This document shows, one piece after another, positions 2,499 to 35,529 of a DNA stretch of 64,000 nucleotides. The notes beneath the pieces are model-generated. The model was not told where the DNA came from, ran no database searches, and saw only the letters and a list, made by a program, of their open reading frames with translations. Position numbers and translations under genes: made by a program. The stretch lies in assembly GCA_965230925.1 (NCBI GenBank), contig OZ246403.1:458455-522454 (forward strand), written 5' to 3'. Positions within the stretch are counted from its first letter, which is position 1. Each line of letters opens with the position of its first letter. This DNA is from an uncultured Candidatus Saccharibacteria bacterium. GTDB taxonomy: Bacteria > Patescibacteriota > Minisyncoccia > Phycocordibacterales > JACOZG01.

Positions 2499-2529
2499 GG
2501 TGGTATCATATCAAAATCAGGAATTTATG

Positions 2530-13136: not shown

Positions 13137-13207
13137 CGGGCTGTAGTATACCGGTAGTACGCGCCCATGGGGTGGGTGTAGACCGGGTTCGATTCCCGGC
13201 AGCCCGA
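13137..13207 (+). tRNA. tRNA-Pro (anticodon GGG)
   Basis: Acceptor CGGGCTG/CAGCCCG, U8, D-arm GTAT...GTAC, anticodon stem CGCCC/GGGTG (one G-U pair) with loop ATGGGGT, T-arm CCGGG-TTCGATT-CCCGG, discriminator A. 71 nt. Confidence 0.65.
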
Positions 13208-19216: not shown

Positions 19217-19741
19217 TTAGGCGACTTTCTTCGCCTTGTAAAGCGCCATCCCTTTCTCAAAAACCGCCTCCGCTTCGGCTTTATTGCCAAAGCCTTTTAC
19301 CTCCACCACCTTATTTTGCAGTTTCTTGTAGGTAGAGTAGAAATGTTCAATTTCTTTAAGGGTGTGAGGGTTAATGTCGGTTAGATTTTGCACCTTTTCC
19401 CACCGAGGATCATCTGTAGGTACGGCAATAATTTTGTCGTCACTATCGCCGCTATCAACCATCCGCAAAACAGCGATTGGTCGCGCTCGCACCAAGATGC
19501 CGGGTAAGAGAGGATAAGTAGTAAGGAGAATGACATCCACAGCATCCCCGTCTTCCCAGAGGGTTTGAGGAATAAAACCGTAGTCAAAAGGGAAGTCCTG
19601 GGCGGTATGTGCTACGCGATCAAGAGCGATTATGCCAGTTTCCTTATCAATCTCGTACTTATTCTTCGAGCCTTTGTTGATTTCAATAATTACATTGATG
19701 GCTGATTTATCGCCAGCCGAGAGATCATGCAATAGGTTCAT
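19217..19741 (-). CDS. ppa: inorganic pyrophosphatase (family I)
   Basis: INVIIEINKGSKNKYEIDKETG...DGDAVDVIL...RMVDSGDSDDKIIAV match the family-I PPase active-site regions. 174 aa. Confidence 0.85.
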   Translation of the reverse strand: MNLLHDLSAGDKSAINVIIEINKGSKNKYEIDKETGIIALDRVAHTAQDFPFDYGFIPQTLWEDGDAVDVILLTTYPLLPGILVRARPIAVLRMVDSGDSDDKIIAVPTDDPRWEKVQNLTDINPHTLKEIEHFYSTYKKLQNKVVEVKGFGNKAEAEAVFEKGMALYKAKKVA

Positions 19742-20906
19742 CTTGTTTGTTTTCTTCTGTTTTAGTTGCTAATTCAGGCTTGTCTGCTGGTATGGCCGGT
19801 CCTACGATATCAATTCTCCAACCAGTAAGTTTAGCGGCGAGTCGGGCATTCTGGCCACCACGACCGACCGCGAGCGAGAATTGATCGGGGTCAACCTCAA
19901 TTTTGGCTTCTCGAGCCTCTTCTTTAAGGCTAATAGACTTAATCTTGGCCGGGGCGAGGGAGTTCCCGATAAATACTTCCGGATTTTCTGACCATTCAAT
20001 AATATCAATTTTTTCGCCGCCGAGCTCGCTGATAACTGTGTTGACCCGGACGCCACGACCGCCAACACAAGAGCCAACTGGATCAATCTTTCGATCCTTT
20101 GAAGAAACAGCAATTTTTGTTCGTGAGCCGGCTTCCCGAGCAATGGAGCGGATTTCGACAATACCAGAAGCAATTTCTGGCGCCTCTTGAGCAAAGAGTT
20201 GCTCAACGAACTTGGGGTGAGATCGGGAAAGCTTAAGATTTACACCGCGCGGCGTTTCTTCTACGGCGTAGAGATAAGCGCGAATGCGTTCGCCCTGACG
20301 ATAATATTCACCTGGCATTTGTTCCTCGTAGGGGAGAATGGCGGTGGTGCGGCCGAGATCAACAAAGACATTGCCTCGCTCCAGTTTTTGCACCTTACCG
20401 GTAATTATTTCACCTTGGCGATCAGTATATTCATCAAGAACCGAGGCTCGTTCGGCTTCCCGAATCCGCTGAACAATTACTTGTTTGGCGGTTTGGGCGG
20501 CAATACGACCGAAGTCGTCCTTAGTCTCGAGTGGGAAAATCAATTCCTCTCCTAGCTCCGCATCGCGTTTAATCTTGCGCGCGTCCTCAAGCATAATGTG
20601 TTGCTCTTCATTGAAAAATACTTTTTCTGGCCTAATTTCTCCTTCGGTTACTGCCTCATCTGGTTCGGTTTCCTCGTCCTCGGTCTTCAACATTGATTCA
20701 TCAACAACAATTTTTACCTGCAGGAACTCGGTTTTGCCACTGGCGAGATCAAATCGGGCGCGAATAATCTGACCTCGATGGCCATAATCTTTCTTATAGG
20801 CGGCAGTTAAGGCGTCCTCAATGGCGCCCATAATTTTGGCTTTAGGAATTCCGCGCTCTTCCTCAAGTTGCTCGAGGGCGGAGTTCATTACTTTTAAATC
20901 AATCAT
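19725..20906 (-). CDS. nusA: transcription termination/antitermination factor NusA
   Basis: NusA N-terminal domain, S1 domain and two KH domains (..RIDPVGSCVGGRGVRVNTVISELGGEKIDII...). The N-terminus MNSALEQLEEERGIPKAKIMGAIEDAL aligns with E. coli NusA residues 1-30. The start is uncertain among the Met at 20951, 20906 and 20888. Confidence 0.85.
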   Translation of the reverse strand: MIDLKVMNSALEQLEEERGIPKAKIMGAIEDALTAAYKKDYGHRGQIIRARFDLASGKTEFLQVKIVVDESMLKTEDEETEPDEAVTEGEIRPEKVFFNEEQHIMLEDARKIKRDAELGEELIFPLETKDDFGRIAAQTAKQVIVQRIREAERASVLDEYTDRQGEIITGKVQKLERGNVFVDLGRTTAILPYEEQMPGEYYRQGERIRAYLYAVEETPRGVNLKLSRSHPKFVEQLFAQEAPEIASGIVEIRSIAREAGSRTKIAVSSKDRKIDPVGSCVGGRGVRVNTVISELGGEKIDIIEWSENPEVFIGNSLAPAKIKSISLKEEAREAKIEVDPDQFSLAVGRGGQNARLAAKLTGWRIDIVGPAIPADKPELATKTEENKQDEPIA

Positions 20907-21034
20907 GATGATATGGGTTAATTTAACAAAAATGTCCGGCAAGCCGGACACCTCTCAGACCACCGGATTTTAGGCGATTCAGCACTGCTTGTCAAATATT
21001 GTGAGTTATCAACAGTCATTCACCCCCCTCTTGT

Positions 21035-21043
21035 TGCTATAAT
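21035..21043 (+). promoter_or_regulatory. extended -10 element TGCTATAAT, 8 nt upstream of the ATG of the 21052 gene (probable leaderless transcript)
   Basis: TGcTATAAT at 21035-21043; ATG at 21052; no Shine-Dalgarno sequence between them. Confidence 0.4.
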
Positions 21044-21051
21044 TCCTCTTA

Positions 21052-21369
21052 ATGATTCGTCAAGAGGATTTACCCCAGAAAACTCATCACCCCATAATTA
21101 TTGTTTGCATTATTATTCTTGTTATTTTAATCGTGATTTTCTTGTCTCATTTATGGTGGCAAAAATGGGGTTTACCCGGAGGTGGCCAAGAGGGCAATGG
21201 CGCCATGACCGATGATCGCCGAGCTGAGATTCTTGAGAGTCTCCGTTCGGATCAGCCACCGCTCTCTGAGGAGAAGCGTCAGCAGATTCTCGAGAGCTTA
21301 GAAGTGGCACCAGGCCAGGGGACGATGACAGAAGCAGAGAGGCTAGAAATTTTAGAATCATTAGAATAA
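21052..21369 (+). CDS. small membrane protein with three (R/Q).EILESL repeats, hypothetical
   Basis: 105 aa. N-terminal transmembrane helix (IIIVCIIILVILIVIFLSHLWW), then RAEILESL, RQQILESLE and ERLEILESLE repeats. Sits 5 bp upstream of the first fibre gene. Confidence 0.5.
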   Translation: MIRQEDLPQKTHHPIIIVCIIILVILIVIFLSHLWWQKWGLPGGGQEGNGAMTDDRRAEILESLRSDQPPLSEEKRQQILESLEVAPGQGTMTEAERLEILESLE

Positions 21370-21373
21370 AAAT

Positions 21374-23014
21374 ATGAAAAATAAATTTTTTGATACGGTG
21401 CGAATTGTGTTTTTGGCCTTGCTTCTCGCTCTTGGTACGAGCTATGCCTTAGCCGATTGGGATAATGCACCTGGCAATCCTCCAGATTGCCCCAACTCTA
21501 TTGAAGGGTGCAACACACCAGTAAATATCAGTGGAGTTGACCAAGTAAAAGATGGGGGCCTCAGTGTCGGTAGTCTCTCCGTAGATGGAGGTGCGATGAT
21601 TCTTGGTGGAGTTACTTCCTCGGTTCCTACACCGATCTTCGAGCTTGCTCTTCGAGCCCTTGGTCGCATTGGTGCTACTGAGTACTGTGATCGTGATGGG
21701 ACAAGTTGTTATCCTATTAGTGCTTTAGTGGGTGGAGATGGCGGCCCGGGTGATCCTCCTGGTAACACAACTTGGACGCAAGTAGGTAATAATCAGTACT
21801 CTAGTTTGTCTGGCAATGTGGGCATTGGTCAAAGCAACCCAACGTCTAAACTGGATGTTTACACTGAAAGTAATGATGCGACCGCTCTTCGGGTAAGAAA
21901 TTGGGGCACTGGGTCAAACACTTACGGTGTTCATATTAGCACCGGAGGAACAGGTGGGGCGGGTACCGCTTTGTATGTGGCCGGTAACGCTGTTGGAGGA
22001 GGGAAGGCGATTGTAGTACCCAGCACTGGTGGCCCAGTAGAGATAAACAGCAGTTTGTGTTTAGGTTCTAGTTCTAATCCTGCAAATTGCAAATCAACTT
22101 GGGGTAGTTCGTCGGGTGACAATTTGGGTAATCACATTGCAACAGACAATATTGAGTTGAACGGCAAATGGTTGAGTAATGATGGTGATGATGAAGGAAT
22201 TCAAGTTTCTAATGCGGGTAACGTTAGAATTGGTCCTGAAATAAGTTCGACCAATAATTTTAAACTGGAAGTAAATGGTGATATTCAGACGAATGGAAGC
22301 TTAAGGTTAGAGGGCACTGGTAGTTTGTTTTTACCTACAGGAGCCGGAATCGGCAAGGTGCTTACTTCTAATGGCCCAGGGCTGGCTGCTTGGGAAAACA
22401 ATTTAGCTGACCATGGTGCCAATGAAAATATTAGACTTAGTACCTACTATTTATCTGGTGATGGCGGTGACGAAGGAATGAAGATCAGTGGTACAGGTGT
22501 TGCTACCTTTAGTAATGATGTGGACATTGTGGGCACGGGAGGAGAAAAAGGGGATTTGTTTGTCGAAGAAGATTTGACGGTAGGGAGAGACTTTGTTTTG
22601 GCTAATGGTTTCAATTTGAATGGTGAACTAAGGCCAGACAGTGTTACGTGTGGCAATAATCAAACTATTAGAAAAACTGGCGCAAATGATTGGGATTGTG
22701 TTACTTGGCCAAGTTCGTCTTCAGGTCGCTGGAAGGAGAACGTGAAGACGTTGACTGGAGCTTTGGACTCCGTGCTTAATCTCCGGGGGGTTTCTTATAC
22801 TTGGGATAAAGAACATGGCGGTAAACAAGACATTGGTTTAATTGCTGAAGAAGTGGGGAAAATTGTTCCTGAAGCGGTTGAGTGGGAAACAAATGGTAAA
22901 GACGCTCGTGGTGTGGAGTATGGTCACCTAGTCGGACTACTTGTTGAGGCTATTAAAGACCAACAGCAACAGATAGAAGACCTAAAAGCGAAAGTTAACT
23001 CTCTTGAAAATTAG
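21374..23014 (+). CDS. secreted fibre protein with phage tail-fibre-type C-terminal intramolecular chaperone (peptidase S74-like) domain
   Basis: N-terminal signal/anchor (MKNKFFDTVRIVFLALLLALGTSYALA). Gly/Ser/Asn-rich central region. The C-terminal ~100 aa (SGRWKENVKTL...DIGLIAEEVGKIVPEAVEW...GVEYGHLVGLLVEAIKDQQQQIEDLKAKVNSLEN) closely follow the endosialidase/tail-fibre chaperone domain consensus (S..R.K.N...iGliAqEv..v.Pe.V....y..L....ikeq...i..L). Confidence 0.75.
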   Translation: MKNKFFDTVRIVFLALLLALGTSYALADWDNAPGNPPDCPNSIEGCNTPVNISGVDQVKDGGLSVGSLSVDGGAMILGGVTSSVPTPIFELALRALGRIGATEYCDRDGTSCYPISALVGGDGGPGDPPGNTTWTQVGNNQYSSLSGNVGIGQSNPTSKLDVYTESNDATALRVRNWGTGSNTYGVHISTGGTGGAGTALYVAGNAVGGGKAIVVPSTGGPVEINSSLCLGSSSNPANCKSTWGSSSGDNLGNHIATDNIELNGKWLSNDGDDEGIQVSNAGNVRIGPEISSTNNFKLEVNGDIQTNGSLRLEGTGSLFLPTGAGIGKVLTSNGPGLAAWENNLADHGANENIRLSTYYLSGDGGDEGMKISGTGVATFSNDVDIVGTGGEKGDLFVEEDLTVGRDFVLANGFNLNGELRPDSVTCGNNQTIRKTGANDWDCVTWPSSSSGRWKENVKTLTGALDSVLNLRGVSYTWDKEHGGKQDIGLIAEEVGKIVPEAVEWETNGKDARGVEYGHLVGLLVEAIKDQQQQIEDLKAKVNSLEN

Positions 23015-23024
23015 TTTTTAACCC

Positions 23025-23078
23025 ATGTCTTGCGAGCATAAATTCAAATTGACCGAAGGTGGCGGGTTGTTACAATAA
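23025..23078 (+). pseudogene. degraded duplicate of the 5' end of the 23450 fibre gene (17-codon remnant MSCEHKFKLTEGGGLLQ*)
   Basis: The sequence 23008-23060 (aattagtttttaacccATGTCTtgcgagcataaattcaaattgacc) parallels 23437-23490 (aataatttttaacccATGTCTcaagagaaaaaatttaaattaacg), including the start codon. It encodes MSCEHKFKLTE versus MSQEKKFKLTQ and then terminates. Confidence 0.55.
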
Positions 23079-23082
23079 GTAT

Positions 23083-23439
23083 ATGGGAAAAGAAATCACA
23101 CTCGAATCTCTTGATAATAAGATAGATAGCAAATTTGGCACGCTTGATTCTAAGTTTACATCCCTTGATGCCAAGTTTAATTCCCTCGACACGAAATTTG
23201 ATGTGCTTCAGGAAGTCTTACAAGACAACTTTAAGATTATTGCTGAGCAGTTTAAGACGGTAAATGAGAAGTTAGACCGACACGAAGTGAAACTGGACCA
23301 ACACGACAAGAGATTTGATCAAATTGAGATTAGATTAGATGAACATGAAAGAAAACTCGACTCTTTGACGGAAGTAGTTGGTGATATTAAAGTCGAAGTT
23401 ATGGGCTTGAACCACAGAGTAGAAGTTTTAGAAAAATAA
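23083..23439 (+). CDS. heptad-repeat coiled-coil protein, hypothetical
   Basis: Tandem 7-residue repeats KIDSKFG/TLDSKFT/SLDAKFN/SLDTKFD followed by further coiled-coil sequence. Probable start MGKEITLESL; the track ORF starts 8 codons earlier. Confidence 0.5.
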   Translation: MGKEITLESLDNKIDSKFGTLDSKFTSLDAKFNSLDTKFDVLQEVLQDNFKIIAEQFKTVNEKLDRHEVKLDQHDKRFDQIEIRLDEHERKLDSLTEVVGDIKVEVMGLNHRVEVLEK

Positions 23440-23449
23440 TTTTTAACCC

Positions 23450-25363
23450 ATGTCTCAAGAGAAAAAATTTAAATTAACGCAAACCCTAAAAGTTGTTTTT
23501 CTTGGCCTGATTTTGGGCTTGGGAATTAATGTGGCTTTGGCTCAATGGGTGCCCCCAGGATTTAATCCAACCAACTGCCCTAGCACTACCGAAGGGTGCA
23601 ATACACCAATTAATCGTTCTGCTGTAAACCAGATTAAAGATGGTAGTTTGGGTATTGGCGGCATCCTCAATGTTCAAGGGGCCATTAAAGCCAGTTCAAC
23701 AATTTATTTTGACGGGGATTTGGTGCCCCGGGGGATGGTGCCATGCGACGTTTCTACTGGAGGCAAGACTGTTTATAAAGATACAGACGGTATATGGAAG
23801 TGTACTAGTTTTGCCCCCTCATTTTGGAAGTTAGATACTGCTACTGTGGGTGATACCAATGACATTACTACAGACATAGCAAGAAATGTAAATTTACCTA
23901 ATACTGTTGCGAGTGGTGGAGTTGCTACAGCCGGCGTTCTCAGGTTCGGCGCCACTGATTTTTTGCATAATTATGGAACCAACAATCTGTTTCTTGGTGC
24001 CAATGCGGGTAACTACACAATGTCCGGATCGGTTAATACGGGGATTGGATTGCAGTCTTTAGACAATAATACTTCCGGTTCTTACAACGTAGCGGTGGGT
24101 CAATTGGCTTCAGGATCAAACTCGTCTGGTTCCTACAACGTAGCGGTGGGCAGGAGAGCCTTAAACTCCAATGTTTCTGGTTCTGGTAACGTAGCTGTTG
24201 GTGATGAGGCTCTTTTTTCTAATACATCAGCCTCAAGCACAGCGGTTGGTTATCAGGCGCTGATGTCAAATACAATTGGCGCCCAAAACGTTGCTGTTGG
24301 TCACCGTGCAATATACGGCAATATTAACGGAAACAGAAACACCGGTGTTGGTTATCAGGCGCTTAGCACTGGTTCAGGAGCTACCTTTGTTGATAACACA
24401 GCGGTGGGTTGGAATTCGCTCGCAAGTACCACTGTTTCTGGGTACAACACTGCTATGGGTAGCGACTCTTTGAGAGTCAATACAACGGGAAGTTACAATA
24501 CTGCGCTTGGTTATCAGTCTTTATTTAATAATGTGGACAAGGGTTACAACACCGCTGTTGGCTATCAGGCTCTTTACTCTAATGATGGCGGGGCGCCATT
24601 TACCGCAGAAAACAATACCGCAGTTGGAAATCGTGCTTTACAGTTCAATACAGCTGGTCAAAGAAATGTGGCCGTTGGTAGTAACGCCATGACTAAGAGT
24701 GACTTTGGTAATGACAACGTTGCCATTGGATATCAAGCCCTAACTAGTTCCACCGTGAGTGTGAATCCGGATGTCGACCAAAATGTGGCCGTTGGTAGTA
24801 ACGCCCTTACTCTGGCCAACAATGACTCTGCTGACAATAATACCGCTGTGGGACACCAAACACTGGACGCTTTAACTGACGGAAACTCTAACACCGCTCT
24901 TGGTTCTGGCGCTGGTGGATCGGTGACTACTGGTCAGAGAAATGTTTTTGCCGGCGCCTTTTCTGGCGCTGGTGGTAATCCGGTGACTACGGGCGGAGAC
25001 TCTGCTACTGGTGGAAACACGTTGCTTGGTTATGGGGCGGGTTTTGCTGGCGTGAGCACTCAATACAATAACGCTACGGCTGTTGGCTACCAGGCTTTAG
25101 TAGGAGCAAGTAATGCTATGGTTTTAGGTAACGACAGTGTGAATGTTGGTATCAGAACCACAGCACCTGGAGATGTGTTGCAAATTGGTGATGGTACTGC
25201 AGACGCTGCGTATTACCTTCGTCTTGATGTTATTTCCACTTCAATTACGGGTAACCCCTGTTCTTTTCCTGGAAGAATGATCCTTTCTACTACAGGTGGT
25301 ACCGACGGAACCCTCTATGTTTGTGGGCGTAATAGCACTTGGCGCGCTGTATTACTTCCTTAG
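23450..25363 (+). CDS. secreted fibre/adhesin-like protein with YadA-head / Hep_Hag-like N.A.G repeats
   Basis: The N-terminus is paralogous to the 21374 protein (AQWVPPGFNPTNCPSTTEGCNTPINRS versus ADWDNAPGNPPDCPNSIEGCNTPVNIS). There are more than 20 repeats of the form NVAVG(Y)QAL.SNT.G..NTAVG, resembling left-handed beta-roll head repeats of trimeric adhesins and tail fibres. Confidence 0.7.
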   Translation: MSQEKKFKLTQTLKVVFLGLILGLGINVALAQWVPPGFNPTNCPSTTEGCNTPINRSAVNQIKDGSLGIGGILNVQGAIKASSTIYFDGDLVPRGMVPCDVSTGGKTVYKDTDGIWKCTSFAPSFWKLDTATVGDTNDITTDIARNVNLPNTVASGGVATAGVLRFGATDFLHNYGTNNLFLGANAGNYTMSGSVNTGIGLQSLDNNTSGSYNVAVGQLASGSNSSGSYNVAVGRRALNSNVSGSGNVAVGDEALFSNTSASSTAVGYQALMSNTIGAQNVAVGHRAIYGNINGNRNTGVGYQALSTGSGATFVDNTAVGWNSLASTTVSGYNTAMGSDSLRVNTTGSYNTALGYQSLFNNVDKGYNTAVGYQALYSNDGGAPFTAENNTAVGNRALQFNTAGQRNVAVGSNAMTKSDFGNDNVAIGYQALTSSTVSVNPDVDQNVAVGSNALTLANNDSADNNTAVGHQTLDALTDGNSNTALGSGAGGSVTTGQRNVFAGAFSGAGGNPVTTGGDSATGGNTLLGYGAGFAGVSTQYNNATAVGYQALVGASNAMVLGNDSVNVGIRTTAPGDVLQIGDGTADAAYYLRLDVISTSITGNPCSFPGRMILSTTGGTDGTLYVCGRNSTWRAVLLP

Positions 25364-25406
25364 TATTTTATTGTTGGTTTCAGTGGAAAAACTAATTTAG
25401 TGCTCA

Positions 25407-25415
25407 TGCTATAAT
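25407..25415 (+). promoter_or_regulatory. extended -10 element TGCTATAAT, 6 nt upstream of the pilB ATG (probable leaderless transcript)
   Basis: TGcTATAAT at 25407-25415; ATG at 25422; no Shine-Dalgarno sequence. Confidence 0.4.
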
Positions 25416-25421
25416 TTTTGC

Positions 25422-27173
25422 ATGTGGCTTGAAGCACCGCGGGTCAAACAATTTCTGGTTGACTCAGATTTAATTGCTCCAAAAGATTTTGAAGCGCTTG
25501 AGGCCGAGGCTGACAAGGCCGGCAAGTCGCTCGAAGAAACTTTACTGAACTCGGGGAAAATTTCGGAAGAAGATTTCCGCCGAATGAAGGCGTATCTTCT
25601 TGGTATTCCCTACATTAGTCTCGCTAAGCTCAAGGTGCCGAAGGAAATTCTTTTTCTCATCCCTGAGCCGATTGCTCGGAAGCATAATATTGTAGCCTTT
25701 GCGAAGGGGGAGAAGGGGCTCGAGGTGGCGATGCTTGACCCGGAAGATCTTCAGTCCATTGAGTTCATTAAGAAGGGAGTGGGAGCGAAGATTCTTCCGC
25801 GGCTCACCGACACTTCTTCGATTAAAAACATTCTTCTGCAATACCAGAAGAGTCTTAAGGCTGAGTTTGGCGATTTGATCCGTGAAGAGGCTACTAAGAT
25901 CGGCGTGATTGCCGAAGGTTCGAATACGCCGATGAATGAAGGCGATCTGAAGAAGCTCGCAGAAGATCTGCCGGTGGTGCGCATTGTTGATACTTTACTC
26001 TCCCACGCCATTACCCAGAAGGCGTCTGATATTCATATTGAACCATTTGAAGGTGAGGTGGTGGTGCGCTATCGCATTGATGGTGTGCTTCATGATGCGA
26101 TGATTCTGCCGAAGAATGCTGGGCCGGGGATCACGGCGCGCATTAAGATTCTTGCTAATCTCCGACTAGACGAGAAGCGCTTGCCGCAAGATGGCCGCTT
26201 TAAGATTGAAGCCGCCGGTCTCAAAGTTTCTTTCCGTGTGTCACTCTTACCCACCTACTTTGGTGAGAAGATTGTGATGCGCTTGCTGCCGGATTCCTCG
26301 CGCGGGCTGACGCTGGAGCAGTGTGGTTTCCACGGTAATGGTTTAGAACGAATTCACGAGGCGATGCAAGGCACGGTGGGGATGATTCTCGTCACCGGGC
26401 CAACCGGCTCGGGTAAGAGCACCACCCTTTACACCATGATGGATATTCTCAATACGCCGGATGTAAATATTTCGACCATTGAAGATCCGATTGAATATCA
26501 AATGATGCGGATCAATCAAACGCAAGTGAAGCCAGATATTGGCCTCACGTTTGCAGCCGGTTTGCGCAGCTTGGTTCGCCAAGATCCTGATATCATTATG
26601 GTCGGAGAAATTCGCGATAAAGAAACGGTAACGCTGGCGATTAATGCAGCGCTCACGGGTCACTTGGTCTTGTCTACCCTCCACACCAACTCGGCGGCTG
26701 GGACGATTCCGCGCCTTCTTGATATGGGGGCCGAGAGCTTCCTTATCATTTCCACGGTTCGTTTGGTTATTGGTCAGCGCTTGGTGCGACGCTTATGCTC
26801 GAGCAAAGAAAGTTATTTTCTTTCCGATGTTGAATTAAAAAACTTGGGGCGGAAAGTGGATCTTGATCGGATGCTTAACCTTTTGCGAGAGGAGCGCGTG
26901 GTGAAGGAGAAGGCAACCTGGAAAGACATTCCCTTCTACCGGCCTAAAGCCTCGGCGGAGTGTGCTGAAGGATTCCAGGGTCGAGTGGGAATTCACGAGG
27001 TGCTTGCTTTGTCGCCGGCGATTAAAGAACTCATTCTTGCTGGAGCGACGGCCGATAAACTGGAGGCGCAAGCGAAAACTGAGGGGATGATTACGATGCT
27101 CGAGGACGGAGTTTTTAAGGCGGTTGGCGGTATCACCACCATTGAGGAGGTGCTCCGCGTGGTTTCAGAGTAA
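25422..27173 (+). CDS. pilB: type IV pilus assembly ATPase PilB (GspE family)
   Basis: N-terminal GSPII_E_N-like domain. Walker A GPTGSGKSTTLY. VGEIRDKETVTLAINAALTGHLVLSTLHTNSAAGTIPRLLDMG is the hallmark PilB/GspE region. 583 aa. Confidence 0.9.
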   Translation: MWLEAPRVKQFLVDSDLIAPKDFEALEAEADKAGKSLEETLLNSGKISEEDFRRMKAYLLGIPYISLAKLKVPKEILFLIPEPIARKHNIVAFAKGEKGLEVAMLDPEDLQSIEFIKKGVGAKILPRLTDTSSIKNILLQYQKSLKAEFGDLIREEATKIGVIAEGSNTPMNEGDLKKLAEDLPVVRIVDTLLSHAITQKASDIHIEPFEGEVVVRYRIDGVLHDAMILPKNAGPGITARIKILANLRLDEKRLPQDGRFKIEAAGLKVSFRVSLLPTYFGEKIVMRLLPDSSRGLTLEQCGFHGNGLERIHEAMQGTVGMILVTGPTGSGKSTTLYTMMDILNTPDVNISTIEDPIEYQMMRINQTQVKPDIGLTFAAGLRSLVRQDPDIIMVGEIRDKETVTLAINAALTGHLVLSTLHTNSAAGTIPRLLDMGAESFLIISTVRLVIGQRLVRRLCSSKESYFLSDVELKNLGRKVDLDRMLNLLREERVVKEKATWKDIPFYRPKASAECAEGFQGRVGIHEVLALSPAIKELILAGATADKLEAQAKTEGMITMLEDGVFKAVGGITTIEEVLRVVSE

Positions 27174-27182
27174 AATTATAAT

Positions 27183-28397
27183 ATGCGATTTCGTTACAAA
27201 GGGAAAAATCAAACCGGCGAAGAGAGCGAAGGTCTGCGTGATGCTAAAGACAAATTTGAGCTGGCACGCGAGATGCGCAGTCAGGGCATCACTCTGATTT
27301 CGGCGGAACTGGTGGAAGAAGAAAAGCCCGGAATCAAATTCTCTTGGTCGAGATTTTCTCGTCGGGTGAAGATGAAAGACAAGATTCTCTTTGCTTCCAG
27401 TTTGTCTTCTATGATCTCGGCCGGTCTCTCTCTGGCGCGGGCTTTGAATGTGATTGAGCGTCAAACGCAAAGTAAAGGGTTTAAAGAAATTATTCGTACC
27501 CTTGAAGAGAAGATTAAGAGCGGCGAGAGCTTTAATGCCGCCCTCGCAACTTTTCCCAATGTTTTCCCGCCCGTGTTCATTGCTATGGTGGCCGCTGGCG
27601 AAGAATCGGGGAATTTACCCTCAGCCCTCCAGACGGTGGGTGATCAAATGGCCAAGAGTTATGAATTGCGGCGGAAGGTGAAGGGGGCAATGATTTACCC
27701 CGCGATCATCGTGATTGTGATCATTGTCATCGCAATTTTGATGATGATTTTCTTGGTGCCAAATATTACTTCGCTTTTTAAAGAAATGAATGTGGAATTA
27801 CCACTCTCGACTCGAGTCGTAATTTTTACTAGTGATTTCATTGCGGGGAGCCCACTACTTTTTGTGGGGGCTCTCATTGCGCTCGCCCTTGGTTTTGGTT
27901 TCTTGGTTCGGAGTAAGCCGGGGCACCAGGCTGTGGCTTGGACCGCCCTCCATTTTCCTGTCATTAAGAATGTCGCCAAGCAAATGAATTCGGCGCTAAC
28001 AATGCGCACTCTTTCTTCTCTGCTCGCGGCGGGGGTGGGGATGGTGGAGTCGATCACCATTACCTCGCGGGTGGTACAGAATCCCTACTATCAAACGGCC
28101 CTTGCTGAGGCGGCGAAAGAAATTCCCAAGGGAAAGAATTTGTCAGTCTTTTTCAAAGACCATGAGAATATTTTCCCGGTGCTCGTAGGTGAGATGGCCG
28201 AGGTGGGGGAAGAAACAGGCAATCTCACCGGCATGTTGCAGAAAGGCGCGAGTTTGTATGAAGAAGAGGTAAATCAAGCCACGAAGAACCTTTCTACGAT
28301 CATTGAGCCCATGTTGATGATCTTGATCGGTATTGCGGTTGGCTTCTTTGCCGTCTCGATGATGGGGCCGATTTACTCGCTGAGTAATCAAATATGA
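27183..28397 (+). CDS. pilC: type IV pilus platform protein PilC (GspF family)
   Basis: 404 aa, two GspF repeats with transmembrane helices. Sits immediately after pilB. Confidence 0.85.
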   Translation: MRFRYKGKNQTGEESEGLRDAKDKFELAREMRSQGITLISAELVEEEKPGIKFSWSRFSRRVKMKDKILFASSLSSMISAGLSLARALNVIERQTQSKGFKEIIRTLEEKIKSGESFNAALATFPNVFPPVFIAMVAAGEESGNLPSALQTVGDQMAKSYELRRKVKGAMIYPAIIVIVIIVIAILMMIFLVPNITSLFKEMNVELPLSTRVVIFTSDFIAGSPLLFVGALIALALGFGFLVRSKPGHQAVAWTALHFPVIKNVAKQMNSALTMRTLSSLLAAGVGMVESITITSRVVQNPYYQTALAEAAKEIPKGKNLSVFFKDHENIFPVLVGEMAEVGEETGNLTGMLQKGASLYEEEVNQATKNLSTIIEPMLMILIGIAVGFFAVSMMGPIYSLSNQI

Positions 28398-30169
28398 AAA
28401 AGGGTTTTACTTTGGTCGAAACACTCATTGGCGTTTTTGTTTTCAGTATTATTTCTTTGGCGATTTATCAGGGCTATTTTTTGGTGTTTTCTCTTTCGCG
28501 TGCCTCACAATACAAGAGCCTCGCGATCCTAGTGGCCAATGATCATATTGAATGGGTTCGGAATGTGGAGTATGAAGATGTGGGTATCTTGAATGGTTTA
28601 CCAGCAGGCGTGATTCCGCGCGAGACCACCAAGACGGTAAGCAATATTACTTTCGACCTTACCACGACCATTCGCAATATCGATGACCCTTTTGATGGAA
28701 CGATTGGCGGAAATCCCAACGATTTGTCCCCGGCGGATAATAAATTGGTGGAAGTTAAGGTGGAATGCGCAACCTGTAAGAACTTTACTCCTCTGGTCGT
28801 TACCACCACGGTGGCACCGGTTAATTTGGAAACGGCTTCGGGGAATGGCGCGCTCTTTGTGGAGGTTCTTGATGCAAACGGTGTGCCGGTGCCACAGGCT
28901 GAGGTAACAGTTGAGAATAATGCGGCCGCACCACCTTTTCTAATTGAAGAAGAAACCGGTAATAATGGCATGCTCCAGCTGGTGGATGTGCCGCCCGGCA
29001 ATTTGGTATATGAAATTACAGTTACCAAAGATGATTATTCTACTGCGCAAACTTATGCCATTGATCCTGCGACAAACCCTAACCCTAATCCGCCTCATGC
29101 CACCGTGGCGGCTGGGCAAGTAACGCAAATTAGTTTAGTTATTGACAAGGTCAGCACCTTTAATGTTTCCACCAAGCTAGATTCTTGCGCGGCGGTTGGG
29201 AGCGTTGGATTTAATCTTCGCGGCGATAAAAAAATTGGCAATTTACCTGATATTTATAAATATAGCGTGAACCACACCACGAGCGGTGGGGGAACAAAAA
29301 CGATTAGTGATCTCGAGTGGGATACTTATAACTTTACTCTCACGGGTACCACGCATGATATTGCTGGGACGATACCTCTTTTGCCGATTGCTTTGCCGCC
29401 TGATGTCTCACAAGACGTTTCGCTTATTTTGGCCCCGCGAGATCCAAAAGCCCTTCTTGTGACGGTGAAAGATGCGACGACGGGTTTGCCTATCTCTGAT
29501 GCCACGGTTCAAATTACGGGCACTGACGTGGATGAAACTAAGGTAACTGACCGGGGCTTCTTCCGCCAAACTGATTGGTCTGGTGGTGCCGGGCAAGACG
29601 ACTTTGTTCTTACCAATCAATTTGATGATAGTGATGGCAATGTCGACTTTACCACCCAGAGTGGCGAGATCAGATTGCGCGAGGCTCTCGGGCAATATGT
29701 GGCGAACGGTTCGCTAGAGTCTTCTACCTTCGACACTGGCGGCAATCAAGCTACTTATTACAACCTTAGCTGGTTGCCAGGAACTCAGTCGGCCTCGACC
29801 ACGCTCCAATTCCAGGTTTCGGCCTCATCTTCACCGGCTGGCCCTTGGAATTACAGTGGTCCCGACGGAACAGCAAGTTCCTACTACACCGCAAGTGATA
29901 CCAATATTCACGCTTCGATCAACAACAACCGCTATTTCCGATACAAAGTATTTCTTTCCACTATTGATCCGGTTTACACTCCTACTCTTGCAGAGGTGGC
30001 GGTGACTTATGGCACCGAGTGTTTTCCTTATGGCCAAGTGATTTTCAGTGGGTTAGGCGACACTAATTACACCCTTGATGTAACGAAAACCGGTTATCAG
30101 CCTTATAGCAATACCGCTGTGCCGACCAGTGGTAATTGGCAAAACTGGGAAGTGCCGCTCCAAATTTAA
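28394..30169 (+). CDS. large prepilin-like protein (class III signal peptide, 591 aa)
   Basis: N-terminal MKKGFTLVETLIGVFVFSIISLAIYQGY has the G/FTLVE prepilin cleavage-methylation motif plus hydrophobic helix. Long C-terminal globular region. Confidence 0.75.
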   Translation: MKKGFTLVETLIGVFVFSIISLAIYQGYFLVFSLSRASQYKSLAILVANDHIEWVRNVEYEDVGILNGLPAGVIPRETTKTVSNITFDLTTTIRNIDDPFDGTIGGNPNDLSPADNKLVEVKVECATCKNFTPLVVTTTVAPVNLETASGNGALFVEVLDANGVPVPQAEVTVENNAAAPPFLIEEETGNNGMLQLVDVPPGNLVYEITVTKDDYSTAQTYAIDPATNPNPNPPHATVAAGQVTQISLVIDKVSTFNVSTKLDSCAAVGSVGFNLRGDKKIGNLPDIYKYSVNHTTSGGGTKTISDLEWDTYNFTLTGTTHDIAGTIPLLPIALPPDVSQDVSLILAPRDPKALLVTVKDATTGLPISDATVQITGTDVDETKVTDRGFFRQTDWSGGAGQDDFVLTNQFDDSDGNVDFTTQSGEIRLREALGQYVANGSLESSTFDTGGNQATYYNLSWLPGTQSASTTLQFQVSASSSPAGPWNYSGPDGTASSYYTASDTNIHASINNNRYFRYKVFLSTIDPVYTPTLAEVAVTYGTECFPYGQVIFSGLGDTNYTLDVTKTGYQPYSNTAVPTSGNWQNWEVPLQI

Positions 30170-30172
30170 ATT

Positions 30173-30751
30173 ATGAAAAAAGGTTTTGGCATCTTAGAAC
30201 TAATCGTGAGTCTCGGGATTTTTGTCATGGTTGTATGGGTTCTGGCCAACTTCCAGGTGAATGTTTTTTCTCAAAAATCAATTATTGGGAGCGGGCTCAC
30301 GGCTGAATTTGAGGCGCGTACTTCACTCAAGAAGCTTATTGCCGAACTTCGAGCGGCGGTGATTTCTGATACCGGTTCTTATCAAATTGCCTTAGCCACC
30401 GGCTCAAGCCTTACCTTCTATAGCGACCGCGATGGCGACAACTTGGTTGAGCAAATTCGTTATTATCTTAATGGTTCCACCTTGCAGAAAGGGGTAATTA
30501 AACCAACTGGTGCGCCACTGCAATATGTGGCCGGCAATGAGCGGATTACCCGTGAGGTCGGCAATCTTACTAACCTTGTAAGTCTGTTTACTTACTATGA
30601 TGCCGCTGGAGCCGTGCTCCCAGAACCAATTGATTTACCTCTCGTGCGGTTGATTGAAGTGACTTATACTATTGACGATAATCCCAGTAAGCCGCCGGCA
30701 CCATTTACTTTAAGTAGTCAGGTTAGTGTTCGCAGTTTAAAATTGCAATGA
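30173..30751 (+). CDS. prepilin-like (pseudopilin) protein
   Basis: N-terminal MKKGFGILELIVSLGIFVMVVWVL carries a G/FGILE motif with Glu at +5. 192 aa. Confidence 0.7.
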   Translation: MKKGFGILELIVSLGIFVMVVWVLANFQVNVFSQKSIIGSGLTAEFEARTSLKKLIAELRAAVISDTGSYQIALATGSSLTFYSDRDGDNLVEQIRYYLNGSTLQKGVIKPTGAPLQYVAGNERITREVGNLTNLVSLFTYYDAAGAVLPEPIDLPLVRLIEVTYTIDDNPSKPPAPFTLSSQVSVRSLKLQ

Positions 30752-32253
30752 TTAAATTTTCTCGAGGGTACATTTTGATCCAAGCTCTCGTTTTTGGTGC
30801 CGTAGGCGTGCTTCTCATTGGTGCCCTCACTGGTTGGGCGAAGGTAAATATTCTTGGCTCGCGCCAGATGGTTCTTCGTGAGCGCGCTTTCCAAATTGCA
30901 GAAGCGGGGATTGAGTATTATCGCTGGCACCTCGCTCATGCCGCGCAAGATTATCAAGATGGTACCGGTGTAGCGGGGCCGTACATCCACGAATATTATG
31001 ATAAGGACGGTGATCAGATTGGCACCTTTACCCTCACTATTACGCCGCCGCCAGTAGGTTCAACGGTGGTGACAATTCTCTCTCAAGGTAATGTTTTGGA
31101 AAATCCAGCTATTACCCGCAAGATCGAAGCGCGGCTCGCTATTCCCTCAATTGCAAAGTATGCCTTCGTGGCCAACTCGGCCATGCGCTTTGGCGCCGGT
31201 ACGGAAGTGTTTGGGCCGATTCACTCCAATGATGGTATTCGTTTTGATGGTCTTGCTCACAACGTGGTGACCAGTGCGCGGAGCGATTATGATGACCCCG
31301 ATCATACTGGTAGTAATGAGTTTGGGGTGCACACTCATGTTAATCCGGTGGATCCAGTTCCTCCAGCCTTGCCACCGGTGCGTAATGATGTCTTTATGGC
31401 TGGTCGCCAATTTCCGGTGCCAGCGGTGAACTTTACCGGCTTTACCAACGATATGTCTGCCATCCGGGCTGACGCTCTCCGGGCTGATGGCACTTGTTGG
31501 CCAGACCCGGCGAATGGGAAATTGTGTTTCCCTGATATTGGTTACTTGGGCTATCGCGTTGTGTTGCGCAATGACGACACCTTCGAGCTTCATCGGATAA
31601 ATTCTCTGAATAATCCGCCAAGCGGTTGTAATCAGCCGACTAGTGGTGGTGTGCCCACCCAGCCCGGTTGGGGCACGTGGTCAATTAGCACCCAGAGTCG
31701 TTTGCGGCAGAATCTCACTACCGGTGGGACAGAGGTTTTCCCTTTTCCGGCCAACGGCATTGTTTTCTTTGAAGAGCATGTCTGGGTGGAGGGGACGATA
31801 AATACGGCCCGCCTTACAATTGCTTCTGGGAAGTTCCCCGAGAATGCCACCACCAATACGAGCATTACGGTGAACAATGATGTGCGGTACACCAATTATG
31901 ATGGTCAAGATGTTTTGGCCCTGATTGCCCAAAATAACTTTAATGTTGGTCTCACGAGCGAAGATGATTTACGCATTGACGCGGCGATAGTGGCCAAGAA
32001 TGGTCGCGCGGGACGACATTTATACACCAGTAGTTGTGGCGGTGATTATATCCAAAATGTGATTACCCTTTTCGGGATGTTGGGTACTAATTTGCGTTAC
32101 GGCTTCGCTTACATTAATGGTTTTGGGACTCATACTAGTGGCTACATTACGCGTAATATTACCTATGATGCCAACCTTCTCTACGGTCCGCCGCCATCTT
32201 TTCCTCTTACTTCCGACCAATATTCCACCATCTCCTGGCGTGAGGTACCGTAA
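30748..32253 (+). CDS. pilus-associated protein with non-canonical prepilin-like N-terminus (possible minor pilin or PilX-like)
   Basis: N-terminal MIKFSRGYILIQALVFGAVGVLLIGAL has a hydrophobic helix after G/YILIQ, with Gln instead of Glu at +5. Overlaps the upstream pilin gene by 4 nt. 501 aa. Confidence 0.45.
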   Translation: MIKFSRGYILIQALVFGAVGVLLIGALTGWAKVNILGSRQMVLRERAFQIAEAGIEYYRWHLAHAAQDYQDGTGVAGPYIHEYYDKDGDQIGTFTLTITPPPVGSTVVTILSQGNVLENPAITRKIEARLAIPSIAKYAFVANSAMRFGAGTEVFGPIHSNDGIRFDGLAHNVVTSARSDYDDPDHTGSNEFGVHTHVNPVDPVPPALPPVRNDVFMAGRQFPVPAVNFTGFTNDMSAIRADALRADGTCWPDPANGKLCFPDIGYLGYRVVLRNDDTFELHRINSLNNPPSGCNQPTSGGVPTQPGWGTWSISTQSRLRQNLTTGGTEVFPFPANGIVFFEEHVWVEGTINTARLTIASGKFPENATTNTSITVNNDVRYTNYDGQDVLALIAQNNFNVGLTSEDDLRIDAAIVAKNGRAGRHLYTSSCGGDYIQNVITLFGMLGTNLRYGFAYINGFGTHTSGYITRNITYDANLLYGPPPSFPLTSDQYSTISWREVP

Positions 32254-33033: not shown

Positions 33034-34145
33034 ATTCAGTTACAGAATTAACGAAAGAGCAGGTGGCCGGGAAGCGCGTGCTTTTGCGCCTCGATCTCAA
33101 TTTGCCACTCGAGAATGGCGAAGTGGCGGATGACTTCCGGGTGAAGCAAAGTGAGGCGACGATAAAGCACCTTCTCGATCTTGGGGCGAAGATTATTATT
33201 TTGAGCCATATGGGCGGGGAAGAAATGGCGAGCTTACTCCCTGTCGCGCGATTTTTGAAAACTAAGTGGCCGGTAACCTTTGTGGAGACTTTTGACCCAG
33301 TGGCGGTGGTGGACGGTTTAGCGCAAACCGATATTGTACTTCTCGAGAATCTTCGCCGCGACTCAGGAGAAGAACGCAATGATCCTGATTTTGCCATTAA
33401 GCTCGCGGCGCTTGGGGACTTGTATGTCAACGAGGCCTTTTCTGCCTCTCATCGGGCCCACGCCTCGATTGTGGGCTTGCCGAAAATTCTTCCCGCTTAT
33501 GCTGGACCGCTTTTTCTTAAAGAAGTTGAAGAGCTGGGAAAAGCTTTTACCCCCGAGCACCCCTTCATTTTTATTTTAGGTGGAGCCAAGCTCGCGACCA
33601 AGCTCCCGGTATTGAAGAAATTTTGTTATCTCGCCGATCAAATTTTTATCCACGGCGCTCTGGCCAATGCCTTTTTCAAAGAGCTTGGTTATGAAACGGG
33701 TCTTTCTCTCGTTGATCCCAAGAGTGATATTGCCCGGCAATTTATTAAATTTGAGAAAATTGTTTTGCCTGTAGATGTGCGTTCGCGACGCGGCGGAGAA
33801 GTTTCGATCAAAAAGCCCGACACGCTTACCAAAGAGGATGAAATTATTGATGTTGGGGTTGATTCAATTGAGCAATTACGAGACGCGGTGAGCAAGGCAA
33901 AGTTTGTTCTGTGGAATGGCCCACTCGGGCGCTTCGAATACGGTTTCCGTGGTGGCACGGATGCGGCCGCCAAGATGATTGCTGAGTCAGAGGCTTACTC
34001 GATGGTTGGTGGCGGCGATACCTTATCTTCGATCCGTGATCTTAATCTCTACGATAAATTTGACTTTGTCTCCACCGCGGGTGGCGCCATGCTCGATTTT
34101 CTTGCCGAAGGCACTTTGCCAGGGATTGAAGCCCTTAAGCATTAA
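33021..34145 (+). CDS. pgk: phosphoglycerate kinase
   Basis: VLLRLDLNLPLENGEVADDFRVK is the N-terminal PGK motif. 374 aa. Overlaps tpiA by 13 nt. Confidence 0.85.
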   Translation: MEGINSVTELTKEQVAGKRVLLRLDLNLPLENGEVADDFRVKQSEATIKHLLDLGAKIIILSHMGGEEMASLLPVARFLKTKWPVTFVETFDPVAVVDGLAQTDIVLLENLRRDSGEERNDPDFAIKLAALGDLYVNEAFSASHRAHASIVGLPKILPAYAGPLFLKEVEELGKAFTPEHPFIFILGGAKLATKLPVLKKFCYLADQIFIHGALANAFFKELGYETGLSLVDPKSDIARQFIKFEKIVLPVDVRSRRGGEVSIKKPDTLTKEDEIIDVGVDSIEQLRDAVSKAKFVLWNGPLGRFEYGFRGGTDAAAKMIAESEAYSMVGGGDTLSSIRDLNLYDKFDFVSTAGGAMLDFLAEGTLPGIEALKH

Positions 34146-35119
34146 TAATCTCCAGTTTGCTTGGGGCGAACTTCGCCACTCTGGTCGATATCGAAGACTT
34201 TTGTGCTTTGATACGCTGGTGTGCCGTCCTCGCCATCACCCTCGGCTAAATCCTCTTCTGTTACGTCGAAGGTGTCTTCTACTGTTTGGTCGAAGTGGGT
34301 GCCATCACTAGTTTCACCACTAATCACATAGGTCACATGGTATGTCCCAACTTCCGTGATATTAGAGAAAATTCCGGTGTACACGCCAGGTGATGATTCG
34401 GTTAGTTCTATAGTGAAGACGTTTCCACTTGGTGAAGTGATGATCGCGACCACATAAGCGCCGATAATCGGCGAGGTGACATTAAGATCCAGAGTTTCAA
34501 TAATCGTAATAGAGAGCGAGGCGGTGCCATTGTCTACCTCGTCTTCATCTTCCGCGGGGTTTTCTTCGTCCTCATCATCTTCATCGCCAGACGGGGTGGC
34601 GTCGACATTGTCATTATCGGAAACATCAACATTTACCGTAGTAGATTCTTCTCCATCATTGGTCACAATTACTTGCCAGGAAGAGTCACCGGTGCCGGTG
34701 CCACCGCCCGCATTTGGGGTAATCCGATAAATAGTGGCGATATTGCCCGTTGCGGGATCAGTGACCACGGTTTTGGTAATGGTAAAGTCACTTGCCTTTA
34801 CTCCGGCCGGTAGAGCGAGTTCTGGTTTTGCGGCCGCACTATCACTCAAGACTTTAATCGTTGTTTCGCCATTTACCGCAAAGGTTTCTGTGTAATTCGT
34901 GTCGGGTTGCAACACTTGCATCAAGGCACCGGAGAGACCAAATTCCCAAAGAAGCCCGCTTCTTTTTGCCTTGGGCGCAGGAGTTTCTGTTGTTGGAGAA
35001 GTTGGTGCGGGTGTTTCAACTTTTTCACCCGAGAAGAGCCAGATTGTGCCAACAATGAGCACTAAGGCCGCGAGGCTAATGAGAACGGGAGTAGCAACAC
35101 CTTGATTATATTTTTTCAT
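34142..35119 (-). CDS. membrane-anchored extracytoplasmic protein with poly-acidic stretch, hypothetical
   Basis: N-terminal anchor (VATPVLISLAALVLIVGTIWLF), Thr/Pro linker, then a beta-rich domain containing a DEDDEDEENPAEDEDEVD run. 325 aa. Confidence 0.5.
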   Translation of the reverse strand: MKKYNQGVATPVLISLAALVLIVGTIWLFSGEKVETPAPTSPTTETPAPKAKRSGLLWEFGLSGALMQVLQPDTNYTETFAVNGETTIKVLSDSAAAKPELALPAGVKASDFTITKTVVTDPATGNIATIYRITPNAGGGTGTGDSSWQVIVTNDGEESTTVNVDVSDNDNVDATPSGDEDDEDEENPAEDEDEVDNGTASLSITIIETLDLNVTSPIIGAYVVAIITSPSGNVFTIELTESSPGVYTGIFSNITEVGTYHVTYVISGETSDGTHFDQTVEDTFDVTEEDLAEGDGEDGTPAYQSTKVFDIDQSGEVRPKQTGDY

Positions 35120-35508: not shown

Positions 35509-35529
35509 TTGCTATAATCATAGCCCATT

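Follow-up and report, generated by a model that had tools for sequence, protein, structure and literature searches.

A candidate surface-fibre cassette beside the type IV pilus operon of an uncultured Saccharibacteria bacterium

Why would a bacterium that carries no phage at this place encode two secreted proteins resembling phage tail fibres directly upstream of its type IV pilus (T4P) genes? This question is raised by a 64,000-nucleotide stretch of DNA from an uncultured Candidatus Saccharibacteria bacterium (assembly GCA_965230925.1, contig OZ246403.1; hereafter the window), in which genes for a small membrane protein (mem105), a first fibre (fibS74), a coiled-coil protein (cc126) and a second fibre (fibHead) lie between nusA and a pilB-pilC-pilin operon (Table 1). 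A central problem is how ultra-small bacteria of the candidate phyla radiation (CPR)/Patescibacteria recognize their hosts and stay attached to them. To our knowledge, almost none of these bacteria can be cultivated, and attachment has so far been tied only to T4P and a few unnamed adhesins. Based on the analysis reported here, we lean towards the view that the four genes form a Patescibacterial surface-fibre cassette, in which a transmembrane (TM) partner accompanies mosaic fibres with a common N-terminal module (N-module), one of them matured by a peptidase S74 domain, and which most likely serves host adhesion and is often found beside the T4P operon.

Two fibres on a common N-terminal module

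fibS74 consists of a signal peptide, whose position is kept across the protein family described below, an N-module, a Gly-rich shaft and a C-terminal domain that the original prediction took for the intramolecular chaperone of phage tail fibres and endosialidases. Profile searches bear this out: Pfam Peptidase_S74 (PF13884) matches amino acids (aa) 449-502 with an E-value of 2.3e-13 and 50.7 bits against a cut-off of 22. The domain starts with S449-S-G-R-W-K454, i.e. the catalytic Ser followed five residues on by the Lys as in SDxxxK-type domains, and two alignments with homologues show no variation at Ser449, Arg452 or Lys454. A trimmed profile of the C-terminus identified chaperone domains of solved structure in the PDB, namely 6F45 (1.6e-16), MYRF 7DC3 (1.1e-13), 8JOV, T5 pb1 8HQZ and GA-1 3GUD; phmmer searches of the PDB with full-length fibS74 or fibHead gave no match. 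With the Ser-Lys dyad intact, fibS74 is predicted to cleave itself at Ser449 with Lys454. PHROG tail-fibre families span aa 152-544 (phrog_1699 at 1e-19, phrog_18186 and phrog_1980), the best tail-fibre match of the shaft reaches 2e-24, and P0002 and P0006 are homologous over the full length. A disulfide hairpin, C-x-x-(N/G)-Q-T-I-x-K-x5-W-x-C-(T/V), recurs once or several times among these fibres, with copies in fibS74 (aa 406-448; 22589-22717), fibHead (aa 95-125), the 705-aa fibHead orthologue at the related locus L087 (aa 145-192) and P0298; in fibS74, where it reads C-x-x-N-Q-T-I-x-K-x5-W-x-C, it directly precedes the predicted cleavage site.

The two fibres were also thought to share their N-terminal module, and after the A-x-A sites of the signal peptides they are indeed 39% identical over 115 aa (E 4e-19). 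In an exhaustive HMMER profile search, this N-module recruited 866 representatives of clusters formed at 50% identity at E<=1e-3; with E<=1e-10, 49 remain. All of them carry the match at their extreme N-terminus, directly behind the signal peptide, and the motif is W-x-x-P...C-P-x4-G-C-(D/N)-x-P-(I/V/L)-N...Q-x-K-x-G-x-L. By contrast to the fixed position of the module, its cargo is a mosaic of GNVGIG..P..KL.V fibre repeats, a GKVLTS collar, head repeats and, mostly, Cys-rich tips, with S74 domains or head repeats being rare among the members. Because proteins with both N-module and S74 exist beside non-S74 members (others are found at L100 and L122 and as P0292), S74 and non-S74 tips are carried on one chassis, as in the MAT fibres discussed below. 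The four members with a named source all come from Patescibacteria or Paceibacterota. No relatives of the N-module were found in Pfam, NCBIfam or the PDB by profile search, and a word-indexed search with a four-sequence alignment returned three candidates and no match.

Several members of the family have unusual arrangements. At L059 (1501-3754), in a Paceibacterota metagenome-assembled genome (MAG), three tandem genes 6-8 kb upstream of pilB encode small N-module proteins of 229-253 aa, each Cys-rich in its C-terminal half; they adjoin a gene whose product has PKD-like repeats and ends in ...PIYEEF. Profile positions ~57-125, which make up the second half of the N-terminal region, are matched 8 times in P0270 (1259 aa) and 11 times in P0282 (1686 aa); thus, the second part of the N-module can occur as an internal repeat. 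At L090, an N-module fibre gene adjoins a gene (11613-12896, minus strand) for a 427-aa protein that matches Por_Secre_tail, the sorting domain of the type IX secretion system (T9SS), which is odd because the backbone is Patescibacteria-like and the organism is without an outer membrane.

fibHead carries a different cargo. It had been described as having more than 20 N.A.G-type repeats of the YadA head; we count 14 strict N-x-[AS]-x-G matches with a period of 17 residues and the consensus NTAxGxxALxxNTTGxx, and no Pfam family, YadA_head/Hep_Hag (PF05658) included, matches the protein at E<=0.1. fibHead matches PHROG 6002, 4636 and 23837 (1e-41 to 1e-46), and the 7587 sequence relatives of fibHead are mostly source-named 'tail fiber domain-containing', many with an S74 or T9SS end. 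In an AlphaFold2 (AF2) monomer model, the repeats form a beta-solenoid (pLDDT 80-89) and the tip is of low confidence. Foldseek with this model gave no significant neighbour in the PDB (best E 0.05, TM-score about 0.1), and the fold was therefore not assigned to YadA heads or tailspikes; in BFVD, there are significant predicted viral neighbours down to E 5e-14, comprising giant-virus 'FhaB-like' proteins, 'Chlorovirus glyco repeat' phage proteins and S74-bearing Caudovirales proteins. COG5295-type proteins of Bacteroidota and viral proteins of the 'Chlorovirus glyco repeat' and 'FhaB-like' types share the fibHead repeat at 31-47% identity over about half the length and number in the thousands. 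However, they usually end in S74 and/or the T9SS sorting domain PF18962 and are without the CPR N-module, while fibHead ends in a ~95-aa Cys-containing tip, the motif of which is common to P0309, P0366 and the 705-aa orthologue at L087.

fibHead shares N-x-A-x-G-type beta-roll repeats with the trimeric autotransporter adhesins YadA and Hia, many of its relatives are annotated by JGI as 'trimeric autotransporter adhesin' and one (P0134) has a single YadA_head match. We nevertheless rejected this class for fibHead because PF05658 does not match, the period is 17 instead of 14 and the C-terminus gave no match to the membrane-anchor beta-barrel of YadA. The CPR organism studied here has no outer membrane into which such a barrel could insert.

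mem105 and cc126 are as originally described, i.e. a membrane protein with three EILESL repeats and a heptad-repeat protein. mem105 has one TM segment and three (T/S)xE(E/R)(K/R)xxILESL repeats, each with (A/Q/L)EILESL. It belongs to no family in Pfam, NCBIfam or PHROG; its homologue at L087 (E 6e-18) has three ARILESLN repeats, and similar proteins are encoded at L092 and L126. In 80 metagenomic loci, collected with a tight alignment that samples the GCDAP[IL]NV subfamily only, 46 of 79 N-module genes have an open reading frame (ORF) of 60-150 aa with an N-terminal TM helix directly upstream on the same strand, usually encoding three (L/P)(T/S)xxE(K/R)xxI(L/I)xxL repeats. Thus, the core unit is a small TM partner together with one or more N-module proteins; many of the N-module genes without such an ORF are the second genes of a tandem. 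cc126 has no TM segment and an XhlA-like match of 30 bits, under the Pfam cut-off of 34.7; an alternative ATG at 23083 would give 118 aa, and a 73-aa homologue is encoded in the same position at L087 (E 5e-4). On a Paceibacterota contig (L088, 3585-5690), four small T4SS_pilin (PF18895) genes lie 4-6 kb from a pair of TM-partner and N-module genes.

The cassette is a hypervariable island, whereas its flanks are conserved: in a comparison of the window with its close relative L087, the flank proteins are 67-85% identical (PilB 85%) and the cassette proteins 31-45%. The first fibres of the two loci can be aligned in the N-module only, and the one at L087 carries a Cys-rich tip in place of S74. 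DNA similarity to L087 ends at 20950 and resumes at 25404, i.e. at the cassette borders, and G+C content at third codon positions (GC3) is 0.35-0.43 in cassette genes versus 0.44-0.56 in the flanks.

Table 1. Features of the fibre-pilus region, in window positions
Feature	Position	Strand	Length	Description
nusA	19725-20951	-		Divergent from the fibre-pilus block
TGCTATAAT, first copy	21035-21043	+		Resembles an extended -10 element and precedes the mem105 ATG by 8 nt; candidate cassette promoter
mem105	21052-21369	+	105 aa	Small single-pass membrane protein; ORF call
fibS74	21374-23014	+	546 aa	ORF call
fibS74 signal peptide	21374-21454	+		aa 1-27, ...YALA↓DW; n-h-c layout, A-x-A site by inspection
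fibS74 N-module	21455-21718	+		aa 28-115; W..P..C-x6-C-N-T-P-V-N...Q-x-K-x-G-x-L ... Y-C-x6-C
fibS74 Gly-rich shaft	21719-22717	+		aa 116-448; motif GNVGIG..P..KL.V
fibS74 Peptidase_S74	22718-23014	+		aa 449-546 plus stop; intramolecular chaperone
cc126	23059-23439	+	126 aa	Coiled-coil protein
fibHead	23450-25363	+	637 aa	ORF call
fibHead signal peptide and N-module	23450-23809	+		aa 1-31 (...VALA↓QW; by inspection), then aa 32-120
fibHead repeats	23987-25069	+		aa ~180-540; 17-residue N-x-A-x-G-x-x-A-L-x-x-N-T-x-G; predicted beta-solenoid
fibHead non-S74 tip	25070-25363	+		aa 541-637; Cys pair, C...G(R/T)(M/L)...(Y/M)VC...W(R/K)
TGCTATAAT, second copy	25407-25415	+		6 nt upstream of the pilB ATG; candidate pilB-operon promoter
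pilB	25422-27173	+	583 aa	Pfam T2SSE 7.4e-123, MshEN 5.4e-11
pilC	27183-28397	+	404 aa	Pfam T2SSF 1.3e-58; platform protein
pil591	28394-30169	+	591 aa	Minor-pilin-like (MKKG↓FTLVE), CarboxypepD_reg-like domains
pil192	30173-30751	+	192 aa	Minor-pilin-like (MKKG↓FGILE)
pil501	30748-32253	+	501 aa	Hydrophobic N-terminus (SRG↓YILIQ), without Glu5
TGCTATAAT, third copy	35510-35518			Before recJ

Recurrent, non-obligatory linkage to type IV pilus genes

All nine ORFs from mem105 to pil501 named in the original prediction are present; nusA, which had been placed at the head of a co-directional block, is on the other strand and diverges from it. The eleven genes from mem105 to pgk share one orientation, and neighbouring genes are -13 to 58 bp apart. 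In so compact a genome, co-direction by itself is weak evidence. With a PilB-type ATPase, a PilC-type platform protein and prepilin motifs downstream, the second half of the block is a T4P cluster, and the closest PilB proteins (60-65% identity) are from MAGs of Paceibacterota, Taylorbacteria, Yonathbacteria and Nomurabacteria, which places the organism among CPR bacteria of the Parcubacteria type. Of the three predicted prepilin genes, two stand. pil591 matches N_methyl (25.2 bits, cut-off 21.2; 1.1e-5), TIGR02532 (21.3 bits, cut-off 16.3) and CarboxypepD_reg (2.3e-11), and pil192 matches N_methyl under the cut-off (0.014) and has the canonical G↓F-x-x-x-E motif by inspection. pil501 has neither a Pfam or NCBIfam match nor a prepilin motif, and may possibly be a GspK/PilX-type tip pilin. 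pil591 is kept after pilC in relatives, and pil192 and pil501 are also kept in position. No major pilin, prepilin peptidase, PilM/N/O or PilT is encoded in 21035-32253.

Fibre genes are linked to pilus genes more often than expected by chance. In 9 of 22 dereplicated informative loci (41%), pilB or pilC lies within 5 kb of the fibre genes, which is far above the few percent expected for a random gene in a ~1-Mb genome. Gene order at the linked loci takes at least four forms (window type, L094, L098, L126 and L162), and at L040 the fibre genes adjoin pilM/N/O. The cassette was rejected as an insertion unique to this genome because the arrangement of the window is also found in other metagenomic relatives (L093/095/168, L119, L120, L133 and, in truncated form, L138 and L170). 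The cassette is present at all five loci whose PilB is nearest to that of the window. At L087, the order is nusA, a ParE pair, mem108, a 365-aa module fibre, a 73-aa coiled coil, the 705-aa fibHead orthologue, an IS200 transposase and pilB. At L090 and L092, fibres occupy the slot between nusA and tpi without pilB or pilC there, at L083 a fibHead-like gene lies between dnaA and dnaN, and the same pilin set is found with and without the fibre cassette. In relatives selected by their PilB, the backbone is clpP-tig-ppa-nusA on the minus strand followed by pilB-pilC-pilins-tpi-pgk on the plus strand, and nusA directly abuts pilB in many species representatives. In other words, the fibre-pilus linkage is enriched and recurrent, and it is also patchy and not obligatory; of the original idea that the fibres are stationed next to the pilus machinery, the recurrent neighbourhood stands, and a constant place beside pilB does not.

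In related Paceibacteria, accessory genes cluster at the junction between nusA and pilB/tpi. At L008 (3648-8810), L013 (3711-8870) and L014 (3012-9953), the nusA-pilB slot holds genes for unrelated secreted proteins of 1713-2296 aa. At L087, it also holds the ParE toxin pair (7661-8184) and the IS200-type Y1 transposase (12257-12937), and at L092 a Y1 transposase gene (9541-10197) lies near the nusA-tpi slot.

The cassette is probably transcribed separately from the pilus operon, both with very short leaders or none, because the cassette and pilB each have a TGCTATAAT element, which is also seen in relatives. The window contains three copies versus 0.23 expected, a number reached in 0 of 100 shuffles, and every copy is 7-12 nt upstream of the first gene in a co-directional run (mem105, pilB and recJ). 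An identical TGCTATAAT is present 7 nt before pilB at L093, L095, L168 and L170, and similar elements are present 8-10 nt upstream of the TM-partner genes at L093, L094, L126 and L168. This distribution suggests that TGCTATAAT is an extended -10 promoter giving leaderless or near-leaderless mRNAs in this organism. A generic promoter and terminator scan, the counts of which were at chance level, missed the TGCTATAAT elements; it found no terminator-like site between the cassette and pilB, and read-through is, therefore, possible.

A layout like that of MAT fibres, and what the fibres may do

The composition of the cassette had been thought to match no recognized class. However, the layout of the fibres is that of the MAT (mosaic adhesive trimer) superfamily of Bdellovibrio bacteriovorus, which comprises 21 surface fibres for prey recognition (Caulton et al. 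2024; PMC10769870). MAT proteins have a signal peptide, a conserved ~130-aa beta-rich N-domain, a trimeric shaft and a tip, which is a self-cleaving S74 domain in 13 members and of another type in 8 (PMC10769870). The authors raise a possible interplay with T4P, and Patescibacteria are absent from their list of other MAT-bearing lineages (PMC10769870). Both sets of fibres are encoded by cells that live on other bacteria and not by phages. In both, the signal peptide is followed at once by an N-domain conserved among paralogs, a phage-like fibre and an interchangeable tip, which is either a self-cleaving S74 chaperone (SDxxxK in MAT, SSGRWK in fibS74) or a non-S74 domain; a single genome can hold tips of both types, and related organisms differ by tip swaps. 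By contrast, the N-domain here has ~90 aa with two Cys pairs and is not predicted to be beta-rich as a monomer, the fibres have a dedicated small TM partner gene of a kind not described for MAT, the MAT proteins are about 1000 aa long compared to a median of 282 aa in the CPR family, and the host cell is a diderm predator in the one case and a monoderm-like CPR cell in the other. In architecture, the fibres belong with the MAT superfamily, of which they may be true members or analogues. Searches of the full-text literature turned up no paper that connects CPR with S74, tail-fibre-like or MAT proteins. While the MAT-type layout was already known, the N-module family, its membrane partner and the mosaic cargo are new here, and they would extend the 2024 idea of cellular tail-fibre-like adhesins from predatory proteobacteria to monoderm-like episymbionts.

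We suggest the following model for the cassette. It would be a self-contained unit (21035-25363) between nusA and a separately promoted operon of pilB, pilC and minor-pilin genes. The first gene of the core unit would provide a small protein that spans the membrane once and has about three short amphipathic repeats, and the second a Sec-exported protein, the mature N-terminus of which is a ~90-aa disulfide-containing module with variable fibre segments and tips grafted behind it. In fibS74, the C-terminal S74 chaperone would drive folding and trimerization of the shaft and then cut itself off at Ser449; fibHead would be a beta-solenoid of 17-residue repeats with a small Cys-containing tip at its end. 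The N-module would hold the fibres at the cell surface, with the extracytoplasmic repeats of the membrane partner as candidate anchor, and the variable distal parts would bind surface glycans or proteins of the host cell. In this way, the fibres would complement T4P, which reach and pull. Matches to PHROG tail-fibre and tail-spike families in both fibres speak for this model, as does the finding that cultivated Saccharibacteria cannot do without T4P and predicted surface adhesins (PMC11665869).

Several observations weigh against it. Linkage to T4P is absent from 13 of the 22 dereplicated loci, and in none of 21 related species selected by PilB, i.e. those with at least 2 kb of upstream sequence, is an N-module gene found within 6 kb upstream of pilB. 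Most N-module proteins are short and Cys-rich instead of long fibres, and because most members are such proteins of ~280 aa, the family may not have a single function. The AF2 monomer model of the N-module, built on an alignment of 80 sequences, is extended with almost no secondary structure (pTM 0.32). An iterative mem105 profile recruited 37 of 38 partners and unrelated small TM proteins as well, so that this drift gives no evidence of specific partner homology, and the positive-inside count of the partners favours an N-in orientation in only 20 of 35.

A wider proposal is that the pair of three-repeat membrane anchor and mosaic N-module fibre, with at least 866 clusters, is an undescribed surface system throughout the Patescibacteria, the hypervariable tips of which set host choice and work together with T4P. 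This proposal is tentative and, in our estimate, rather doubtful; if true, the two-gene system would be the Patescibacteria equivalent of phage receptor-binding proteins and of the Bdellovibrio MAT fibres. The family can be searched for by its hallmarks, i.e. the N-module, the paired membrane protein, phage-like shafts, S74 or other tips and fast turnover between close relatives. N-module fibres are concrete candidates for host-range determinants that could be catalogued in metagenomes and correlated with host taxa.

Instead of acting on their own, the fibres could be T4P accessories whose N-module docks on the minor-pilin tip complex or the shaft so that the pilus presents the variable tips, in the manner of PilY1/PilC. 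PilY1/PilC are Sec-exported non-pilin tip adhesins of proteobacterial T4P. Like these, the fibres are large Sec-exported adhesin candidates encoded beside pilus genes; however, the Pfam scan gave no sequence or domain similarity, and the pilus linkage here is facultative. The linkage in 41% of the loci and in several gene orders, the presence of the cassette at all five loci with the nearest PilB, an operon that encodes only large minor-pilin-like proteins, and the fusion of head-repeat and S74 fibres to a prepilin N-terminus in other phyla (P0154 and P0231) would fit such an arrangement. We hold it to be unlikely given the loci without linkage, the absence of the cassette from the PilB-selected relatives, the fibres in nusA-tpi slots, the unchanged pilin set, and the promoter-like element and dedicated membrane partner of the cassette itself; moreover, P0154 is encoded among diderm housekeeping genes and not in a pilus locus. 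P0154 (L173, 8001-10472) and P0231, both non-CPR, carry their fibres on the prepilin N-terminus GFTLAE (N_methyl 3e-6 and 1e-7, respectively) and would be pilin-anchored self-processing fibres; the neighbours of P0154 include BamA and ExbD. A different function, as secreted or surface enzymes (depolymerases or lysins) that degrade the capsule or cell wall of the host for access or nutrients, is brought to mind by S74, which classically follows the beta-helices of endosialidases or tailspike depolymerases (Pfam description; PDB neighbours 8HQZ and 3GUD), and by the weak best PDB folds of the fibHead repeats, which are tailspike, pectate-lyase-type and polygalacturonase beta-helices. These fold matches are not significant (E>=0.05, TM-score about 0.1), no catalytic family was found in the Pfam and NCBIfam scans, and the Gly-rich shaft of fibS74 matches distal subunits of long tail fibres rather than tailspikes, and we regard an enzymatic role as improbable.

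We likewise give little credence to the idea that the fibres are general envelope or S-layer-associated structural proteins without host-specific role, the variability of which reflects pressure from phages or predators. The large family of mostly short and Cys-rich proteins, members in housekeeping neighbourhoods, other giant secreted proteins in the same slot at L008, L013 and L014 and a GC3 as low as that of a gene for a giant PKD protein (see below) are in line with it, but presence and absence among close species argues against an essential structural role, and tail-fibre shafts, maturation by S74 and the exchange of tips are typical of receptor-binding proteins. The similarity to phage proteins could also be taken at face value, with the cassette as a degraded prophage, tailocin or phage-derived remnant that has retained a tail-fibre module. 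fibS74 shares the C-terminal S74 Ser-Lys dyad with chaperoned phage fibres (K1F endosialidase, T5 pb1, GA-1 neck appendage and S16-type long tail fibre), and its shaft matches PHROG long-tail-fibre families; the strength of the PHROG matches, the XhlA-like coiled coil, the viral structural neighbours of the fibHead repeats, the IS200 and toxin-antitoxin genes in the same slot at L087 and the GC3 below that of the flanks all point in this direction. However, both fibres have Sec signal peptides, and in fibS74 the signal peptide and a cellular N-module replace the baseplate-attachment domain. No capsid, terminase, portal, baseplate, sheath or lysis genes are present within ~20 kb on either side. 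The original statement that no integrase is nearby has to be qualified, since a tyrosine recombinase of the XerC/D type with a Phage_integrase Pfam domain is encoded 18 kb away (2470-3384). The block is flanked by housekeeping genes, i.e. RNase Y, clpP, tig, ppa and nusA on one side and tpi, pgk, HIT, recJ, RNase H and comEC on the other; the gene pair recurs with its cellular membrane partner at conserved chromosomal positions in many Patescibacteria, and a single degenerate and thus limited pattern gave 58 matches in viral contigs, none of them a relative of the N-module. A phage remnant is thus highly improbable. A prophage tail-fibre module was rejected on the housekeeping context together with the signal peptides; the two fibres are, as predicted, host-encoded.

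Other genes of the window

The gene between tig and ppa (18393-18698, minus strand) encodes a conserved 101-aa protein that passes the membrane once and has an acidic tail rich in Thr and Pro; this protein is found in the same place in relatives and is without a Pfam family. The same applies, as regards Pfam, to a 325-aa secreted protein with a long Asp/Glu-rich stretch that is encoded after pgk (34142-35119, minus strand). Between two tRNA-Pro genes (5721-5793 and 13137-13207) lies the gene for a 2390-aa secreted protein (5909-13081, plus strand), which consists almost entirely of PKD or K319L-like PKD repeats (11 or more copies, E 7e-123) and the GC3 of which is 0.37, as low as in the fibre cassette. 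A second PKD protein of 690 aa is encoded after comEC (43338-45410), and the two PKD proteins are probably further giant surface proteins.

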